From a virus (taxonomy: Duplodnaviria; Heunggongvirae; Uroviricota; Caudoviricetes), in IMG/VR virus record IMGVR_UViG_2541047938_000003, positions 1-42,938 of that record: a stretch of 42,938 bases of DNA; one strand, given 5' to 3'. Shown here piece by piece: positions 4,804-34,487 of the stretch. The position numbers and the translations under genes were made by a program. Each line of letters begins with the position of its first letter. Position 1 is the stretch's first letter. A model generated the notes under the pieces. The model did not search any database and had not been told where the DNA came from. It was given only the letters and a program-made list of their open reading frames with translations.

Positions 4804-5775
4804 TCAGTAATGAATTTTCGCGCAGGGGATCAGGTTATCTTTCAGAGCGGTAAGCACTTCGATAGCCTGCTCGCGGGTTAAGCTGGTTTGGCTGGTGAGC
4901 GCGTTAACGATGTTGGTGCCGACCGTCTTGCGGTGCTTAACGTCAGCTTCACGCTTTGCCTGCTCATCGGCGAGGCGCTTCTCTTCGGCCAGGCGGGCAT
5001 CTTCGGCCTGTTTGGCCTTCAGGCGCTCGGCTTCAACCGCCGCGGCTTTTTCGCGTTCCGCCCGGGCTTCCGCTTCCTGCTTCTCGCGAGCTGCACGCTG
5101 TTCCGCTTCGACGCGCTGGCGCTCCGCCAGTTCAGCGCGGGCTTTCTCTTCGGCTTCACGGCGCGCTGCGGCTTCAATCTCCGCTTTGTGCTTCGCTTCG
5201 GCATCGCGGCGGGCTTGTTCTGCCGCTTCCTGTTTCAGCCGCTCATCACGTTCACGCTGAGCCTGTTCCGCCAGACGGCGCTGCTCTTCGCGGTCACGGT
5301 CAAAATCCTTGTTCATCAGTAGAGCCATTTCGTGGTCCGCTTCGAACTTGGCAGCCAGCTCCTGATCGAACCTGATGTTCATCTCCAGCGCTTCGGCGTG
5401 CATCGCGTTCATGGCTTCTTCAGCCTTAATGCGTTCCTGCTCGGCTTCCCATTCGGTGAGTGGGCGGCGGGTCGCATCGCGCAGCTCGTCGCAGGCATCA
5501 ACGAATCGCTTAATTTCGGCCTCAGCCGGACGCACAGCCTCTTTCAGGCGCTTCAGGTACTCACGGCCCGGCTTTTCGATTGCCGTCTTGCTGCGGGACA
5601 CCTGCGCTGCCAGAGAGGCAACACGGTCACGGCCTTTCTTCGTGGACAGGTCCGGCACTTCGTTTACAGCCTGGCGGATTTGCTCAAGGTACGCGTCAAG
5701 GCCGCCCGCTACGTAAAGCACTGGGGCCTGTTCCGGCTTGATTTCGATGACAGTTAAGTCCGTTACTTCGCTCAT
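4804..5775 (-). CDS. Hypothetical coiled-coil protein with E/R/A/K-rich repeats
   Basis: 323 aa; the long charged low-complexity stretch explains the many spurious antisense ORFs in the track. Confidence 0.5.
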   Translation of the reverse strand: MSEVTDLTVIEIKPEQAPVLYVAGGLDAYLEQIRQAVNEVPDLSTKKGRDRVASLAAQVSRSKTAIEKPGREYLKRLKEAVRPAEAEIKRFVDACDELRDATRRPLTEWEAEQERIKAEEAMNAMHAEALEMNIRFDQELAAKFEADHEMALLMNKDFDRDREEQRRLAEQAQRERDERLKQEAAEQARRDAEAKHKAEIEAAARREAEEKARAELAERQRVEAEQRAAREKQEAEARAEREKAAAVEAERLKAKQAEDARLAEEKRLADEQAKREADVKHRKTVGTNIVNALTSQTSLTREQAIEVLTALKDNLIPCAKIHY

Positions 5776-5845: not shown

Positions 5846-6043
5846 TTACTGCTGCGCGATGGATTTCGCCGGGAACTCGCCGTTGCGGATGATGCTTTCT
5901 ACCGGCCAGCACTCAGCTGACACTTTCTGCTCTGTAGCTGCCAGGCTGCATTCCTGCTGGCTGTCGTAAACGCCGAGAATGACATCCTGATAATCACCGT
6001 TGGTCATTGCCACGGTCAGGACGAGTGCGAATAAAGTTTCCAT
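5846..6043 (-). CDS. Small protein with N-terminal hydrophobic segment (likely start at internal Met)
   Basis: ATG at 6043 preceded by GGGAGGA; METLFALVLTVAMTNG... looks like a signal peptide or TM helix; 66 aa. Confidence 0.45.
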   Translation of the reverse strand: METLFALVLTVAMTNGDYQDVILGVYDSQQECSLAATEQKVSAECWPVESIIRNGEFPAKSIAQQ

Positions 6044-6171
6044 CAGTGAAGAGTCCTCCCGATGGCGACGGCGTAAAGGCGTTTTGCTTCTTCCCACGCC
6101 GGAGCATTGCGATGGAGCACCGCGAACGACGCGAGCCGTTGGGCCTCTCTGATCTGCTGCTGGTTTACCAT
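6043..6171 (-). CDS. Small hypothetical ORF (42 aa), not in the supplied track
   Basis: ATG at 6171 preceded by GAGGAA; stop overlaps the ATG at 6043 (TGATG); MVNQQQIREAQRLASFAVLHRNAPAWEEAKRLYAVAIGRTLH. Confidence 0.3.
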   Translation of the reverse strand: MVNQQQIREAQRLASFAVLHRNAPAWEEAKRLYAVAIGRTLH

Positions 6172-6503
6172 GATTTCCTCTTGGCCTTATCGCGGCGAAC
6201 GGAACGGTTAATACAAGACTTCAACGCATTTATTCAGTGTTTCAATGGGCGGTGGATGGCCGCCGGTTGTCATAAATGGGCAGACTCGAAAATCTGCCTA
6301 TGTATGGCCGATAAAAAACCCGCCGGAGCGGGTCATTCATTCTTTGGTATGCCGCAAAGGGCGTTTAGCGTTTCAACGGGAATGGCAAGTGCGGTGCTGG
6401 TCGCTTCACGGCGTTCCACCTCAGGCAAATATGGCACTGCCTCAGGCCACATCTCAGCCAGTTTTTTAACAGTTGAGACTTTGGTTAGAGCACCTTTAAC
6501 CTG

Positions 6504-7001
6504 CTATTGGAAGGCATCAACTTCATCGTAAAGAACGTTGATGGTTACCGTCGATTCAGTGAGTCGGTCGTGTAATTTTCCAACTTTCTTCAGCGTGCTG
6601 TAACTTTCAGGAACGAAACCCGAATCAATTACAGGCGCGAAGGAAGCTCCGAAGAACAGGTCGCTTTCAAGATCGTGCTTACCAATATGTTTTCCACGGT
6701 GGCGATAGCGATGATCCAAACCGTTCCTGGCTAATTCGTGATACTCACCATTAATAATGACCTTTAAAATTGCAGTTTTAGCGCCGACCTGCATCTTGAT
6801 GAAGGAGTTATCTTTGAAATCTTCCCGAGCCTTAGTTATTTGCTCATCGCTAGTGTTTTCCTGCTTGAGCAATGCCTGTCGAATTTCTTCAACAATTTTC
6901 GCCCTCTCATTAACCGCAGCTTTCGCTTTCTCAAACAATGGGGATGCGAGAAGCAGGTTATGGCATAGCTGATTTTTAATTTCGTTGTTAAGACGAATCA
7001 T
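6504..7001 (-). CDS. Hypothetical accessory protein, first ORF of the leftward early operon
   Basis: 165 aa; AT-rich by eye relative to flanks; contains RYRHRGKH (Rx4H-like). Not arginine-rich, so not N-like. Confidence 0.5.
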   Translation of the reverse strand: MIRLNNEIKNQLCHNLLLASPLFEKAKAAVNERAKIVEEIRQALLKQENTSDEQITKAREDFKDNSFIKMQVGAKTAILKVIINGEYHELARNGLDHRYRHRGKHIGKHDLESDLFFGASFAPVIDSGFVPESYSTLKKVGKLHDRLTESTVTINVLYDEVDAFQ

Positions 7002-7419
7002 TGACTTACCCTCTGTCGTTACCCGCTGATGCGGGAGAAATGCTTTGGCGATGTGGTAGGTGGGAGACCCATTTCGACCCGATTCGGCCTACTTATCTTC
7101 GGCAATAGCTCCTCGGGCCTCGCCGCTTTACGTGCGACATATTCCCGTCCATGAACCCTTCACCACATCCCATAACATTCCCTGTATTGGTCAGCGCCAA
7201 CTCCCTGCCAGTGTTGCCCGTTCTCACGCCGTTCTCGCTCTCGCGCGGGGATACTCTCTCACCGACCGGATCGCACCCGGTGATACAGCACGTTTACGTG
7301 TAGGGGTCTTAACAGGTCATTGACGCTGTAAATCTGCATGTTGTTAAAAAGCAGGCGACTTGCTGTCCGCCGCTGGCTAACTTCGCTCAGCTGTCGATGT
7401 TTCGTTTCGATGGGGTAAA

Positions 7420-7494
7420 TTTAGCGTGATGCTAAATTATGCGCAATAGCAAAATGCTAAATTGTTGAATGGTTTTATTTAGCGTATTGATTAA
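7420..7494. promoter_or_regulatory. OL-like operator cluster: three 17-bp sites of form TTTAGC-N5-GCTAAA
   Basis: 7420-7436 TTTAGCGTGATGCTAAA (perfect palindrome), 7445-7461 AATAGCAAAATGCTAAA, 7478-7494 TTTAGCGTATTGATTAA; same motif recurs right of the repressor gene. Confidence 0.55.
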
Positions 7495-7533
7495 TAAGCG
7501 ATTAAAAATTTACAGCGAAGGAATTCGGGACGT

Positions 7534-7557
7534 AAAAAAGCCCGCGCGATGGCGGGC
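7534..7557 (-). terminator. Rho-independent terminator downstream of the repressor gene
   Basis: Stem GCCCGC/GCGGGC (7540-7545 / 7552-7557) with 6-nt loop, followed on the minus strand by a six-T run. Confidence 0.6.
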
Positions 7558-7577
7558 TTGAGGGGTTTTGCGTGAGG

Positions 7578-8255
7578 TTATGGGATGTTTAGTATTTTGG
7601 CATCAACCACAACGCCGATGATTTTGCAGTTTCCATTAATTTCTAGCATTGGATATGCGGGGTTAAGGGGCTTTAGGAAGCGTCTGCCGGCATCGATTAC
7701 AAGCTTCTTAAAGGTCGCTTCGTTATCGCCTTCTAGCTTCGCGACAACCAGCTTTCCGTTGCGCGGCTCGACTTCAGGATCAACAAGTATCGCTGCTCCC
7801 TCGGGTATGCTCAGTCCAGCCGGGGAGGTCATAGAATCCCCTTTAACGTCCAGCCAGAATGAATCTTCTGAGCAGTCAACAGTCGTGTCATACCAGCGAT
7901 CTATCGCTCTTCGGTGATAAGGTTCTACAGCTTCCATCCATTGCCCCGCGCTTACCCAGCTGATTACAGGATAACTTCCTTTTGTCTCGTTCAGTCCTCG
8001 AAATGCAACGTTCGAAGGTTCTTCACTGGCGTGTAAAACATCCATCCAGCCAAAAGGCAGATCAAGCGCAGTTTCAATTTTGCGAGCCATCTTATCGCCG
8101 ATATTGCGATGAGGGTTTGGTCCCAGTAGCTGACTAAGCGCAGCCGGACTTGTCTCGATGAGCTCGGCAAACTGCGCTTTGGTCATTCCAGACTCGTGCT
8201 GACGCTTCTCGTACAGCGCTTCCAGGTTGGCTTTTCTGATTTCTTTATTTTCCAT
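7578..8255 (-). CDS. cI: cI-like repressor (HTH plus S24 LexA-type autopeptidase domain)
   Basis: Start set at ATG 8255 (MENKEIRK...); HTH region QFAELIETSPAALSQL; S24 motifs GDSM and VVAKL; operator repeats on both sides. Confidence 0.85.
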   Translation of the reverse strand: MENKEIRKANLEALYEKRQHESGMTKAQFAELIETSPAALSQLLGPNPHRNIGDKMARKIETALDLPFGWMDVLHASEEPSNVAFRGLNETKGSYPVISWVSAGQWMEAVEPYHRRAIDRWYDTTVDCSEDSFWLDVKGDSMTSPAGLSIPEGAAILVDPEVEPRNGKLVVAKLEGDNEATFKKLVIDAGRRFLKPLNPAYPMLEINGNCKIIGVVVDAKILNIP

Positions 8256-8273
8256 ACCTGCATTGTTACTGCT

Positions 8274-8339
8274 TTTAGCAAAATGATAAATGTGCAAATT
8301 GCTAAATGATGCTTGCGTAGTATTTAGCATAACGCTAAA
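8274..8339. promoter_or_regulatory. OR-like operators and candidate rightward promoter
   Basis: 8274-8290 TTTAGCAAAATGATAAA; 8323-8339 TTTAGCATAACGCTAAA (perfect palindrome); candidate promoter TTGCGT (8313-8318) - 17 nt - TAAACT (8336-8341) overlapping the operator. Confidence 0.5.
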
Positions 8340-8371
8340 CTCCAAATCAAACGACTCACCCGGAGACACCA

Positions 8372-8605
8372 ATGAGCACTGAACTACACCGCTGGCGCAA
8401 GGCCGCCACTACCGACGAATGGGCGCAGCTCGCAAAGTTGGCTAACACGACGCCAGGTTACCTGGACCAGATCGCCTACGGAAATCGCCGGGCATCTCCA
8501 GAAATGGCATCTGCTATCGAGAAAGGCACGAAGAATTTTCACCGCCAGGCTCCGGTCCTAAAAGAAAGCCTGGTATTCGCATCGCCGCGTGATACTGCGG
8601 CCTAA
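8372..8605 (+). CDS. Cro/YdaS-like small HTH regulator
   Basis: 77 aa, divergent from the repressor; GGAG RBS; HTH-like WAQLAKLANTTPGYLDQIAYG. Confidence 0.6.
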   Translation: MSTELHRWRKAATTDEWAQLAKLANTTPGYLDQIAYGNRRASPEMASAIEKGTKNFHRQAPVLKESLVFASPRDTAA

Positions 8606-8622
8606 CCACGAAAGGGAAAGCA

Positions 8623-9165
8623 ATGCATTCACTTGCGTATCAACACAATACCGGAATACACCCGGGAGCGATGATAAACCGCGCTCAAGCTAAAGCGACG
8701 CCGGACCACGAAAAGATCCGCGATGCGGTCCGTGCCTGGTCATCGGCGCTGGATAATCAGGACGTGGTGTCAGCGCTGATCATCAACGAATACCGGGAGC
8801 AGGGCGGGACCGCCATCAGCTTTCCGGACGACATCAGCCGGGCGCGCCAGAAGCTGTTCCGCTTCCTGGATAACCGCTTCGACTCTGAGCAGTACCGCGA
8901 GAACGTGCGCCAGCTGACGCCCGCAATCATGGCCGTTTTGCCGCTGGAGTATCGCCATCGACTTCTTCCAGAGGACAGTTTTATGTCCCGCTTAGCTCGA
9001 CTTGAGAAAGAAACGAGCGAGGCGAAAGTGGCCGTTGCGATGAACGCCCCGCGTCACCAGAAGCTCAAGGAACTCAGTGAGGGGATTGTAGAGATGTTCC
9101 GTGTCGACCCGGATCTGACCGCGCCGCTGATGGCTATGGTCACTTCGATGTTGGGGGTTATGTGA
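8623..9165 (+). CDS. CII-position regulatory protein (possibly YdaT-like)
   Basis: 180 aa directly after the cro-like gene; family assignment is a memory-based guess. Confidence 0.4.
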   Translation: MHSLAYQHNTGIHPGAMINRAQAKATPDHEKIRDAVRAWSSALDNQDVVSALIINEYREQGGTAISFPDDISRARQKLFRFLDNRFDSEQYRENVRQLTPAIMAVLPLEYRHRLLPEDSFMSRLARLEKETSEAKVAVAMNAPRHQKLKELSEGIVEMFRVDPDLTAPLMAMVTSMLGVM

Positions 9166-9255
9166 TGGGAAGTTTCAAAAATGGCGAAAGCCAGTCTGCG
9201 CGAACAGAACTGGCCTTCAGATGCAAATCGTGTGCACTCATTGCAGGAGGAATAA

Positions 9256-9401
9256 TGGCAAAAAATCCACGCTATTACCATACCGCTGTACATAAAAACA
9301 TAACCCGCGACCGCTTCATCCGCTCGGTTAACCCGATTGTGGCAGAGAAGATGCGCGCCATCCTGGAAGAACTGAAACGTAAGGAGAGTGGCCGTGGGTA
9401 A
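9256..9401 (+). CDS. Small hypothetical protein
   Basis: ATG at 9256 preceded by AGGAGG; 48 aa (MAKNPRYYHTAVHKNITRDRF...). Confidence 0.3.
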
Positions 9402-10293
9402 CGTATCCAATTTAGCCGAAGCCAGAGAGGCCAGAAGGCTCCAGAAACCGCGCACGAATGACGGTAAGGGGTTTGCCTTGCTGCACCGTAAAATTATGGA
9501 TGTGCCGTTCTACAAGGACGCTGAGGCGGCTCATTTATGGGTTCACATGCTCCTGCGTGCTAATCACGAACAGACACTGGTATCTACTGATGTTGGCGAT
9601 GTGATCTGCGAGCGCGGAGAGTTCATCACCGGGCGAAACACACTGGCAATGGAAACGGGTTTGACCGCTGATCGCGTTAAATCCCTTCTCCGTAAATTCC
9701 AGAATCTGGGCATGATCACCACCAAATCGAACAACCGTTTTACTGTTCTAAAAGTGGTCAAATATGACGAATATCAGTCAAATTTTTGTCCAGCAGATGT
9801 CCAGCCAGCGTCCAGCCCAAACATAGTCGTACCAATGCCTGCGGAGGTGGAGTGTCCAGCCGATGTCCAGCCAGTGTCCACAGATAACAATATATTAAAT
9901 AACTTACTACCTAACGGTAGTAAGTATGTCGCAAATGACCAGAAACCCGCTGAAGAGAAAAAGTCTCGTTTGTCATGCGATGAAGTATGGCAATGCCTGA
10001 AAGACGAACTGCCTGAAGCACGGGGATGGAGATGCCTCACTGATGAGCGACGCAATCTGATCCGCACATTCTGGGGTAAGGCTAATAAGATTGCCCGCAA
10101 CCTGGACGGCAAGCCGATGGATATGGACGGTTTCAGAAGCTATCTGCGTTACATCGCTCAGAACTGCCGCTGGATGCTTGAAGACCGACCAGACCAGAAG
10201 TCTGGGAAGACCTGGCGCCGCATGAAATTCGATAAGTTCCTGACCGAAAAGCTCTACATCGAAGTGCGCGAGGGGGATCGTGATGACCGCTGA
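9394..10293 (+). CDS. Replication initiator (lambda O-like role) with internal iterons
   Basis: Winged-helix-like N-terminus; embedded repeats and adjacent AT-rich tract; followed by DnaB helicase. Start may be GTG 9388 or 9394. Confidence 0.6.
   Translation: MGNVSNLAEAREARRLQKPRTNDGKGFALLHRKIMDVPFYKDAEAAHLWVHMLLRANHEQTLVSTDVGDVICERGEFITGRNTLAMETGLTADRVKSLLRKFQNLGMITTKSNNRFTVLKVVKYDEYQSNFCPADVQPASSPNIVVPMPAEVECPADVQPVSTDNNILNNLLPNGSKYVANDQKPAEEKKSRLSCDEVWQCLKDELPEARGWRCLTDERRNLIRTFWGKANKIARNLDGKPMDMDGFRSYLRYIAQNCRWMLEDRPDQKSGKTWRRMKFDKFLTEKLYIEVREGDRDDR
9787..9884. repeat. Candidate origin iterons (about six copies of TGTCCAGCC-like motif) inside the initiator gene
   Basis: TGTCCAGC 9787, TGTCCAGCC 9798, CGTCCAGCC 9810, TGTCCAGCC 9853, TGTCCAGCC 9865, TGTCCACA 9877; followed by AT-rich tract and palindrome CTTACTACC-TAAC-GGTAGTAAG (9904-9925). 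Confidence 0.5.
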
Positions 10294-32690: not shown

Positions 32691-34487
32691 ATGGCGATAG
32701 TTAACGAGCTTATTACCAAATTCGGTTTTATCGGTAATCTGGCGCCGCAGGAAACCTTCAATGCAAATCTGAAAGCGTCTATTGGTTTGCTTGCCGGGCT
32801 TGGAGCCGCTATCGCCGGTTCGGCTGCGGGGGTTGCTGGCTGGGTGACGTCTGTCAGTCAGTCTATTGATCCGCTGGTCCAGTTCTCCCGGGAAACGGGG
32901 GTGGCGATCGAGACCGTTCAGTCACTGGGTTACGCGGCGTCTGTAAATGGCTCAAGTGTTGATGCGTTGCAGGCTTCGCTAGGTGAGATGACAAAAAGAG
33001 TGGGGGAGTTCGTTTCCACCGGCGAGGGGGAGGCGAAAGACGTTGCGGAAAGGCTGGGCCTTCAGTTCAAGGATATGAACGGGCAGGTAAAAAACTCCGA
33101 TGTGATATTTCGTGAACTGGCCGACAAACTGCACGGCATGAGCCAGGCAGAGAAGTTTTCTGTTCTGGATAAGATGGGTATCGACCGTTCCATGGTGCAG
33201 TTGCTATCCATGACGGGCGAAGAAATATCTTCGTTGCAGAACAAGGCCGAAGCGCTTGGTGTTGTCACGCAAGACCAGGCCGATCAGTTTGCAGCCTACA
33301 ACGATTCTCTGACAACGCTGGGGAAAGGCTTTGATGGTATCAAATTTCAGGTTGCCGTCGGATTTGTGCCGGTACTGAAAGACCTGGTGGATGGGTTTAC
33401 GGACTTTCTCATTGCTAATAAGGATCTCATCAAAAACGGGCTGGCCCATCTTGGGGAAATTATCTTCTCCGTTATGGGTATGATCCGTCGCTTCCTGCCG
33501 ATTATTGGTCTTATTACCACCGGATTTGTAGCCTGGAAAATTGCTGCTATAGGACTTAGAACGGTGCTGGCAACCATATTCTCTCCTGTCGTACTGATCA
33601 CTGCCGCCATTATCGCTCTCGTTCTTGTTATCGATGATTTGCTGACGGCTATGGAAGGTGGCCAAAGCGTTATTGCTGATTTCTTCAAAGATAACTGGGG
33701 AATAGATATTGTTCCCGCACTGAAAGAGGCGAAAGCGTCGCTCATGGCTTTCATAAACTACGCCATTGGCGTGTTTAAACCGCTTGCTGATGCGATTGCC
33801 TCCATGTTCAGGATGGTGTGGCATCTCATCACAGGTGCGTTTACGGGTGATTTTCAGGATGCGATGAAGGATGCGCAGAATATCTTTGATTCTCTTATAG
33901 CGTTTATCACTGGTGCATTTGGTGTCGTTGGTGATGCGATTAAATACGTGTTTGGCGATGCCGGCTCGTTTGTCGTTGATGTATTCACTACTGCCATCGA
34001 AAACACGAAGCTGATGTTCTCAGCACTATGGAAGTTAGTCACTGGCGATTTTGAAGGTGCATGGGGGGATGTGGTAAAAATCTTCGATAACGGCGTCGAA
34101 CTGATGAAAAAACCATTCACGGCTTTTATTGACTGGGCGAAAAACATCTTTGCTGGGCTGGGGGAATACATCAGCAATATTATCAGCAACGCTGCTTCAA
34201 ATGCCTGGAATGCGACAAAGTCATTCTTCGGGGTCGGTGAGGATGAACAGCAGCAGGGAGTAACCGGCGGCGGTAACGGCGGCATGAGTCCTGGTGGTAT
34301 TCCTTACGGCATGAATGCTGCGGTGGGACTCGGTGGTGGTGGCGTGACAAGCAATTCAAGCGTCAGCCAGCAGAACACGATTCACATCAACACATCCGAT
34401 CCGGTTGTCGCCGGGAATACTGCGGCAGATAGCCTGCAACAAAACATGAAGGATGCCAACCGGTTGAGTGGCAGAGGAGGTCGGTAA
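32691..34487 (+). CDS. Tail tape measure protein
   Basis: ~600 aa; N-terminal TMP-like region, central hydrophobic segments, Gly-rich C-terminus. Confidence 0.8.
   Translation: MAIVNELITKFGFIGNLAPQETFNANLKASIGLLAGLGAAIAGSAAGVAGWVTSVSQSIDPLVQFSRETGVAIETVQSLGYAASVNGSSVDALQASLGEMTKRVGEFVSTGEGEAKDVAERLGLQFKDMNGQVKNSDVIFRELADKLHGMSQAEKFSVLDKMGIDRSMVQLLSMTGEEISSLQNKAEALGVVTQDQADQFAAYNDSLTTLGKGFDGIKFQVAVGFVPVLKDLVDGFTDFLIANKDLIKNGLAHLGEIIFSVMGMIRRFLPIIGLITTGFVAWKIAAIGLRTVLATIFSPVVLITAAIIALVLVIDDLLTAMEGGQSVIADFFKDNWGIDIVPALKEAKASLMAFINYAIGVFKPLADAIASMFRMVWHLITGAFTGDFQDAMKDAQNIFDSLIAFITGAFGVVGDAIKYVFGDAGSFVVDVFTTAIENTKLMFSALWKLVTGDFEGAWGDVVKIFDNGVELMKKPFTAFIDWAKNIFAGLGEYISNIISNAASNAWNATKSFFGVGEDEQQQGVTGGGNGGMSPGGIPYGMNAAVGLGGGGVTSNSSVSQQNTIHINTSDPVVAGNTAADSLQQNMKDANRLSGRGGR

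Follow-up and report, generated by a model that had tools for sequence, protein, structure and literature searches.

The virus record IMGVR_UViG_2541047938_000003 (Caudoviricetes; positions 1–42,938, hereafter the window) contains a candidate prophage immunity region centered on a gene for a CI-type repressor (7578–8255, minus strand, 225 aa). The protein combines the Pfam domains HTH_3 and Peptidase_S24 and aligns with lambda CI over its full length (34% identity; PDB 3bdn, E 5e-32 over residues 10–218). A divergent cro-like gene (8372–8605, plus strand, 77 aa) is preceded by a Shine-Dalgarno sequence GGAGA at 8362–8366; its product gives a weak HTH_3 match, falls into phrog_35 and shares 61% identity with Cro of phage H-19B, also 77 aa long, across all 77 residues. 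The cII position is occupied by a gene encoding a YdaT-domain protein (8623–9165, plus strand; PF06254, E 6.9e-27; phrog_163, CII-like activator, E 1e-59; PDB 8bt1, YdaT, E 1e-4). A first-pass annotation, made from the DNA letters alone, had called the rightward gene cro-like and had proposed that clusters of 17-bp TTTAGC-N5-GCTAAA sites flank the repressor gene and define the likely immunity specificity of the prophage. The homologies to lambda CI and H-19B Cro bear out both gene assignments, and the clusters do lie on either side of the repressor gene.

Six such sites are present, three to the left (left operator, OL1–OL3) and three to the right (right operator, OR1–OR3) of the repressor gene, and the two half-sites of each lie one helical turn apart. 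Mismatches were scored against the 17-bp TTTAGC-N5-GCTAAA. On the left, OL1 (7420–7436; TTTAGCGTGATGCTAAA) is a perfect palindrome, TTTAGC-GTGAT-GCTAAA, with 0 mismatches, located inside the spacer and -10 hexamer of the putative leftward promoter PL. OL2 (7445–7461; AATAGCAAAATGCTAAA) reads TTTAGC-ATTTT-GCTATT in the PL sense (2 mismatches) and overlaps the PL -35 hexamer by 2 bp, and OL3 (7478–7494; TTTAGCGTATTGATTAA) reads TTAATC-AATAC-GCTAAA in the same sense (2 mismatches), with a single good half-site. On the right, OR3 (8274–8290; TTTAGCAAAATGATAAA) reads TTTATC-ATTTT-GCTAAA in the repressor sense, with 1 mismatch. OR2 (8290–8306; ATGTGCAAATTGCTAAA), TTTAGC-AATTT-GCACAT in the repressor sense (3 mismatches), possesses a single perfect half-site, is situated between OR3 and OR1 and has one base in common with OR3. 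OR1 (8323–8339; TTTAGCATAACGCTAAA) is again a perfect palindrome, TTTAGC-ATAAC-GCTAAA, with 0 mismatches, inside the spacer and -10 hexamer of the putative rightward promoter PR. Centers are separated by 25 bp (OL1–OL2), 33 bp (OL2–OL3), 33 bp (OR1–OR2) and 16 bp (OR2–OR3), and an independent repeat finder also detects these copies, spaced by 25 and 33 in the left cluster and by 16 and 49 in the right one. Five sites, namely OL1–OL3, OR3 and OR1, had been named in the first-pass annotation and are all found where it placed them (0, 2, 2, 1 and 0 mismatches, respectively). Its count of at least two sites on the right stands as well, and the addition of OR2 brings the right operator to three; in the window, a search at ≤3 mismatches finds no fourth site beyond OR1 toward cro.

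The statistical significance of the repeats depends on the stringency chosen. At ≤3 mismatches, the whole 42.9-kb window contains 24 matches to the 17-mer against 18.3 expected, an unremarkable count, and the bare hexamer TTTAGC is likewise not enriched (27 against 21.4 expected). At ≤2 mismatches, eight matches are obtained against 1.5 expected (maximum of 5 in 200 shuffles), and five of the eight fall inside the two intergenic stretches, which together comprise 257 bp or 0.6% of the window. Composition-matched shuffles of this intergenic DNA, keeping its 63% A+T content, yielded a mean of 0.016 sites, and five sites were reached in 0 of 2000. OL1 and OR1 are the only perfect matches in the window. 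A motif search across the window, which had been suggested as a check, thus remains near chance with the looser threshold and exceeds it with the stricter one.

The same check was extended to related loci. Fourteen genome loci were collected from Enterobacter, Citrobacter, Atlantibacter, Phytobacter, Pantoea, Biostraticola and Samsonia, with repressor N-terminal domains 39–100% identical, and 160 IMG/VR loci and the deposited phages KO-TP1, Chronis and H-19B were added to the comparison. All 131 loci with a TTTAGC-type OR1 keep the three right sites in register, OR1 at -84 to -68, OR2 at -51 to -35 and OR3 at -35 to -19 from the repressor ATG; the OL1–OL3 triplet with its 25/33 spacing was recovered in 120 of them. 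Half-site columns of the right operator have a mean information content of 1.93 bits, as against 1.01 bits for the other intergenic columns. In OR1 both the half-sites and the spacer are conserved (signature TTTAGC-KTTAT-GCTAAA), and the half-sites of OL1 are unchanged in 11 distinct sequences from the 120 relatives with a left operator, its N5 spacer being variable.

The remaining four sites each carry their own palindrome defect, and these defects are conserved across relatives. OL2 keeps GCTATT in 11 of 11 distinct sequences (TTTAGC-N5-GCTATT), and OL3 keeps the signature TWAATC-N5-GCTAAA across 26. OR2, found in every relative, has an invariant left half and a right half GC(A/G)(T/C)AT in its 13 distinct sequences. 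OR3 follows TTTATC-N5-GCTAAA, with T at position 5 of the half-site in 15 of 16 distinct sequences and G in none.

In one group of loci (L012, L014 and L100–L103), where the recognition helix of the repressor begins with NP or VA and not with SP, SA or TP, all sites change jointly from TTTAGC/GCTAAA to TTTATC/GATAAA. The defective sites take part in this switch: the left half of OR2 becomes TTTATC in all six loci, and in L012 and L014 OL2 becomes TTTATC..GATATT and the good half of OL3 becomes GATAAA. We regard the joint change of the sites with the repressor helix as the strongest support for operators that set immunity specificity. Together with the conserved register and the conserved defects, it favors the role in immunity specificity that the first-pass annotation had considered likely.

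The left triplet is not always adjacent to the repressor gene. In L008 (triplet at 5143–5184), L009 (4755–4829) and about 35 IMG/VR loci it lies 0.25–2.2 kb downstream of the cI stop codon, the usual distance being about 83 bp, and retains its internal arrangement. Such behavior is expected of a left operator separated from cI by a cargo slot of variable content, in the place taken by rexAB in lambda or by the toxin–antitoxin pair in CP-933P.

Both clusters are associated with predicted promoters of one design, in which TTGCGY is followed by 4 nt and by an operator whose final TAAA starts the -10 hexamer. PR (8313–8341, plus strand), directed at cro, would consist of a -35 hexamer TTGCGT (8313–8318), a 17-nt spacer and a -10 hexamer TAAACT (8336–8341). 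Its overlap with OR1 agrees with the earlier proposal, and among the 131 loci the -10 TAAACT is present in 127 and the -35 TTGnnn in all. PL, directed at a leader of the phi80 nutL type, would consist of a -35 hexamer TTGCGC (7441–7446, minus strand; TTG invariant in relatives), a 17-nt spacer and a -10 hexamer TAAATT (7418–7423, minus strand; the same in 119 of 120 relatives). The PL hexamers fall exactly on those of the annotated phi80 pL (-10, L017 2914–2919; -35, L017 2937–2942). The interpretation of the left cluster as operators therefore gains a detail that had not been part of it, namely the overlap with a promoter of PR-like design.

For the promoter of repressor maintenance (PRM), a putative -10 hexamer AACAAT is located at 8262–8267 (minus strand), 6 nt before the repressor ATG. 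In 12 diverged loci this hexamer, at -12 to -7 from the ATG, reads xAxxAT with A2, A5 and T6 invariant; nearly all of the 131 loci fit the same pattern, and the six bases up to the ATG vary. Since the conserved -10 lies only six bases from the start codon, the PRM transcript of the repressor gene is suggested to be leaderless, like those of lambda cI and CP-933P paaR2. Relative to the proposed leaderless start, the centers of OR3, OR2 and OR1 would be at -27, -43 and -76. The left half-site of OR3 (8285–8290) coincides with the proposed PRM -35.

We assign a probability of about 0.88 to the interpretation that the six sites form two tripartite operators, left and right, within an H-19B-family immunity region of a lambdoid prophage, as judged from sequence comparison. 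The region contains a repressor with a helix-turn-helix and an S24 domain, a small divergent Cro and then a regulator in the cII position. One site cluster lies between cI and cro over conserved hexamers of the predicted PR and PRM, and the second (7420–7494) lies at a leftward promoter running into nutL. The operator "code" announced by the first-pass annotation would accordingly describe genuine operators, though not ones of a new kind.

Affiliation with H-19B (AF034975) is indicated by homology of Cro and of the CI DNA-binding domain (51% identity) and by the same architecture of the right operator. H-19B possesses three 17-bp sites, TTTACCATTTTGATAAA, TTTATCATATTGCGTAT and TTTATCCATTTGCTAAA, at -84, -51 and -35 from the cI ATG; its OR2 and OR3 also share a base pair, and the PRM -10 occupies the equal position. 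The operator sequence, however, is not the same. H-19B half-sites are TTTACC/TTTATC and GATAAA/GCTAAA instead of TTTAGC/GCTAAA, with OR1 reading TTTACC-N5-GATAAA and no G at left position 5 in any of its three OR sites, and its recognition helix is SPSQLTQVS, whereas that of the window repressor is SPAALSQLL. H-19B further differs in a candidate fourth OR site (L018 1399–1415), which has no equivalent in the window at ≤3 mismatches, in the S24 C-terminal domain and in a lambda-type cII in place of the YdaT-type gene. Given the different half-site, the immunity is probably distinct from that of H-19B; partial cross-recognition is possible, as OR3 of H-19B contains a GCTAAA half like the window sites. 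The H-19B operators have reportedly been studied experimentally by Shi and Friedman in 2001 (Mol Microbiol 41:585), according to the review PMC8065619.

Several observations weigh against this interpretation or parts of it. A generic sigma-70 scan of positions 6900–8700 called zero promoters; PR and PL each have a -35 hexamer that agrees with the consensus at just 3 of 6 positions, and this weakness is the reason why PR was missed. The promoters were therefore assigned from their conservation and from the homologous features annotated in phi80. As for PRM, its proposed -35 is no more than the OR3 half-site, and the conserved outer TAAA of OR1 and OL1 could in part reflect -10 function and not repressor contact. 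Many of the 131 loci are closely related, so that independent lineages are far fewer, with 6–26 distinct sequences per site. As for geometry, the OR2 and OR3 centers are 16 bp apart, tighter than in lambda, which makes their joint occupancy uncertain, and with OR1 and OR2 33 bp apart instead of about 24, lambda-style cooperativity between adjacent sites is not guaranteed. The last objection is tempered by the annotated phi80 OR1 and OR2, which are also spaced by 33 bp.

Part of this evidence could be accommodated by a simpler switch with one or two sites per promoter, in which true repressor sites are confined to the strong palindromes (OL1 and OR1, perhaps also OR3 and OL2), and OR2 and OL3 are kept for UP or -35 context or for binding by Cro alone. 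OR2 and OL3 are indeed the sites with one good half-site apiece (3 and 2 mismatches), OR2 adjoins OR3 with a common base, and operator number is known to vary among relatives, 933W having two OL sites and H-19B four OR sites (PMC8065619). However, the good half-site of OR2 and OL3 is invariant and switches to TTTATC/GATAAA together with the other sites in the loci of that class; a promoter element has no reason to switch, and such a role is weakened accordingly. In addition, by our reading of the spacing, the TTGCAC in OR2 fits no promoter geometry. We consider this arrangement unlikely.

Two more radical alternatives appear far less plausible. The repeats might not be protein sites at all, representing chance similarity of AT-rich DNA or repeated promoter elements. 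The absence of window-wide enrichment for TTTAGC or for the 17-mer at ≤3 mismatches would fit this, as would the A+T content of the intergenic DNA and the assignment of the end TAAA of OR1 and OL1 to the -10 hexamers. Against it stand the shuffling result, the register kept across genera despite variable OL1 spacers and surrounding sequence, the change of the sites together with the repressor helix, and the persistence of the OL triplet when displaced by up to 2.2 kb; we give this explanation hardly any credence. Just as improbable, in our estimate, is binding of the sites by another protein, such as the YdaT-type CII equivalent or a ParB/KorB-like protein. The KorB operator of plasmid RK2 has the same half-sites (TTTAGC-S-GCTAAA), and YdaT proteins bind inverted repeats (PMC9986795). 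The KorB spacer, however, is 1 bp against 5 bp here, no korB-like gene was seen among the open reading frames examined around the region, and no good match to TTGATT-N6-AATCAA, the motif published for YdaT, is located nearby; where neighboring genes differ between loci, the sites still go with the N-terminal domain of the repressor. A text search of the literature for TTTAGC as an operator yielded the KorA/KorB sites of RK2, which are unrelated, and nothing else.

Returning to the lambdoid operators, lambda itself shares with the window a CI homologous over its full length, a cI gene flanked on either side by an operator of three pseudo-palindromic 17-bp sites, divergent PRM and PR, and a PL leading into nutL. 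In lambda, OR2 is centered at about -42 of PRM, and the corresponding center in the window would be -43 if PRM is leaderless as proposed. Unlike in lambda, the operator sequence is unrelated, the sites of the right operator are spaced by 33 + 16 bp and not 24 + 23 bp, the left and right operators are 0.9 kb and not 2.4 kb apart, rexAB is missing, and OR1 alone overlaps PR, whereas in lambda OR2 does so as well.

Prophage CP-933P of E. coli O157:H7, with its PaaR2/YdaS/YdaT regulators, offers another parallel. Its repressor gene paaR2 is leaderless, footprinted palindromes have a half-site beginning GTTTAG, and OL/PL, with three OL sites, matches OR/PR (PMC8630535). The window likewise has a YdaT-family protein in the cII position and a PL of the same design as PR. 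In contrast, PaaR2 and YdaS are not closely homologous to the window CI and Cro (best PDB match of Cro, E 0.34). The CP-933P repeats, four in number, are 18 bp long and evenly spaced, and a toxin–antitoxin pair is co-transcribed with its repressor.

The repressor is a domain chimera. Residues 1–80 are of the H-19B type (the 51% identity extends over 75 aa), and residues 81–225 are of the P22 C2 type, with 83% identity in protein and about 77% in DNA. The N-terminal domain of P22 C2 shows no significant similarity, which points to another operator specificity. The residues of a self-cleaving S24 domain are conserved in the alignment with lambda CI: Ala-Gly (VSAGQW), Ser (GDSM) and Lys (FKKL). 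Because of the 83% identity of the C-terminal domain to P22 C2, oligomerization, cooperativity and RecA sensitivity are probably P22-like. H-19B and the loci L012–L014 combine the same N-terminal domain family with another S24 domain, which shows reassortment between the DNA-binding and the oligomerization/cleavage domains. An intrinsic terminator is predicted behind the repressor gene (7538–7559, minus strand; 8-bp stem containing 6 G-C pairs, then TTTTTT).

The repressor start at 8255 is backed by in-frame stop codons 1–6 codons upstream in L008–L011 and L013, and all tblastn matches to the protein begin at residue 1. A start giving a 250-aa protein, with its ATG inside OR1, is annotated by PGAP/RefSeq and in the KO-TP1 record; we rejected it in view of the in-frame stops that relatives have upstream of the conserved MENKEIRK start. 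The stretches concerned are window 8256–8330, L016 6279–7031 and L001 4278–5030; the annotated open reading frame has 25 surplus codons, which conceal the right operator.

Downstream of PL, a 414-bp leader (7005–7418) is 99.8% identical to phi80 32794–33207, and this homology stops precisely at the annotated pL -10. By homology to the phi80 annotation, the leader includes nutL (7289–7353, minus strand), with boxA TGCTTTTTA at 7345–7353 and the core at 7289–7300. A terminator-like hairpin (7354–7371) is located directly upstream of boxA; it was rejected as a terminator right after PL, since its T-run is the boxA TGCTTTTTA annotated in the matching phi80 leader. Also discarded was the possibility that 7005–7418, which is free of open reading frames, contains an HK022-style put RNA or a missing N gene, as the stretch is accounted for as a phi80-type leader. 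An Rfam scan of 6000–9500 (E up to 1) gave only sub-threshold matches and no known RNA element. A weak match to isrK, an Hfq-binding small RNA, at 6313–6369 (minus strand; 21.3 bits, gathering score 50; E 0.14) is probably due to chance.

Outside the leader, the positions of the PL hexamers and the OR1–OR2 spacing, phi80 is different: its operators are other 19-bp sequences, and no homolog of phi80 N was found in a search across the window. Its CI and Cro were considered as relatives of the window proteins and rejected as unrelated. Because the phi80 leader identity ends in PL while phi80 CI and Cro are unrelated, the window is, by these alignments, a heteroimmune mosaic with its left junction inside PL. 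The phi80 homology starts right after the start codon of the first PL gene, and in place of phi80 N the window has a 165-aa Nmad5-family open reading frame (6504–7001), which uses the same ribosome-binding region. Among E. coli prophages, homology breaks off to the left near positions 7335, 7350 and 7368; the right-hand breakpoint, near 8645, lies 23 nt inside the ydaT-like gene. Judging by their positions, these breakpoints mark the recombination boundaries of the immunity module.

We propose the following mode of action. Repressor dimers would bind through the N-terminal helix-turn-helix, with SPAALSQLL as the recognition helix, occupying OR1 and OL1 first and thereby blocking PR and PL. The P22-C2-type C-terminal domain would mediate dimerization and cooperative filling of the weaker sites and, possibly, looping between the left and right operators over 0.9 kb. 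Repressor on OR2 (-43) would stimulate the leaderless PRM, as in lambda, and at high repressor levels OR3 (-27, overlapping the PRM -35 and marked by T at position 5) would shut PRM off. OR3 would also be the preferred and likely first target of Cro. RecA-stimulated self-cleavage at Ala-Gly would lead to SOS induction of the prophage. Immunity specificity would be set mainly by position 5 of the half-site, whose partner would be residue 1 of the recognition helix in the repressor; position 5 may be read by the repressor and not by Cro.

The Cro sequences bear on the last point. The Cro recognition helix GYLDQIAYG is essentially unchanged across specificity classes, and the whole helix-turn-helix, LAALAKTSVGYLDQIAYGFRRASP, is identical in H-19B (L018 1154–1387) and in Pantoea loci of the TTTAGC class (L008, L010 and L011); the repressor helices and operator position 5 differ where the Cro helix-turn-helix stays identical. 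Because of this identity, Cro may be less operator-specific than the repressor in the H-19B-like family. We tentatively speculate that the two proteins read different parts of the operator and that the repressor alone discriminates position 5 (G with Ser/Thr, T with Asn/Val at helix residue 1), although the odds appear to be against it. Were this correct, a Cro protein could function at the operators of related phages that are heteroimmune to its own, the repressors remaining private, and co-resident prophages would be subject to an asymmetric cross-talk that the classical view, with the whole imm region setting specificity, does not predict. The family would also constitute a natural single-base, single-residue specificity series for helix-turn-helix recognition.

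In E. coli the immunity module is present in 27 to 126 of 5426 complete genomes (about 0.5–2%), where its genes are annotated just as "LexA family protein" and "hypothetical protein". The same immunity type occurs in prophages of Enterobacter, Citrobacter, Klebsiella, Pantoea and other enterobacteria. Among 50,697 deposited phages, the combination of N-terminal domain, right operator and cro is found in two, KO-TP1 and Chronis, which are known only from genome records or taxonomy listings. By its sequence features, the window module is a new specificity member of a well-known lambdoid kind, with its own half-site, and the understanding of how such switches work is unchanged by it. Its definition at the sequence level corrects a recurrent annotation error, in which the repressor reading frame is stretched 25 codons across the right operator, provides a comparative series for the study of operator-specificity drift, and allows homo- and heteroimmunity among these prophages to be predicted.

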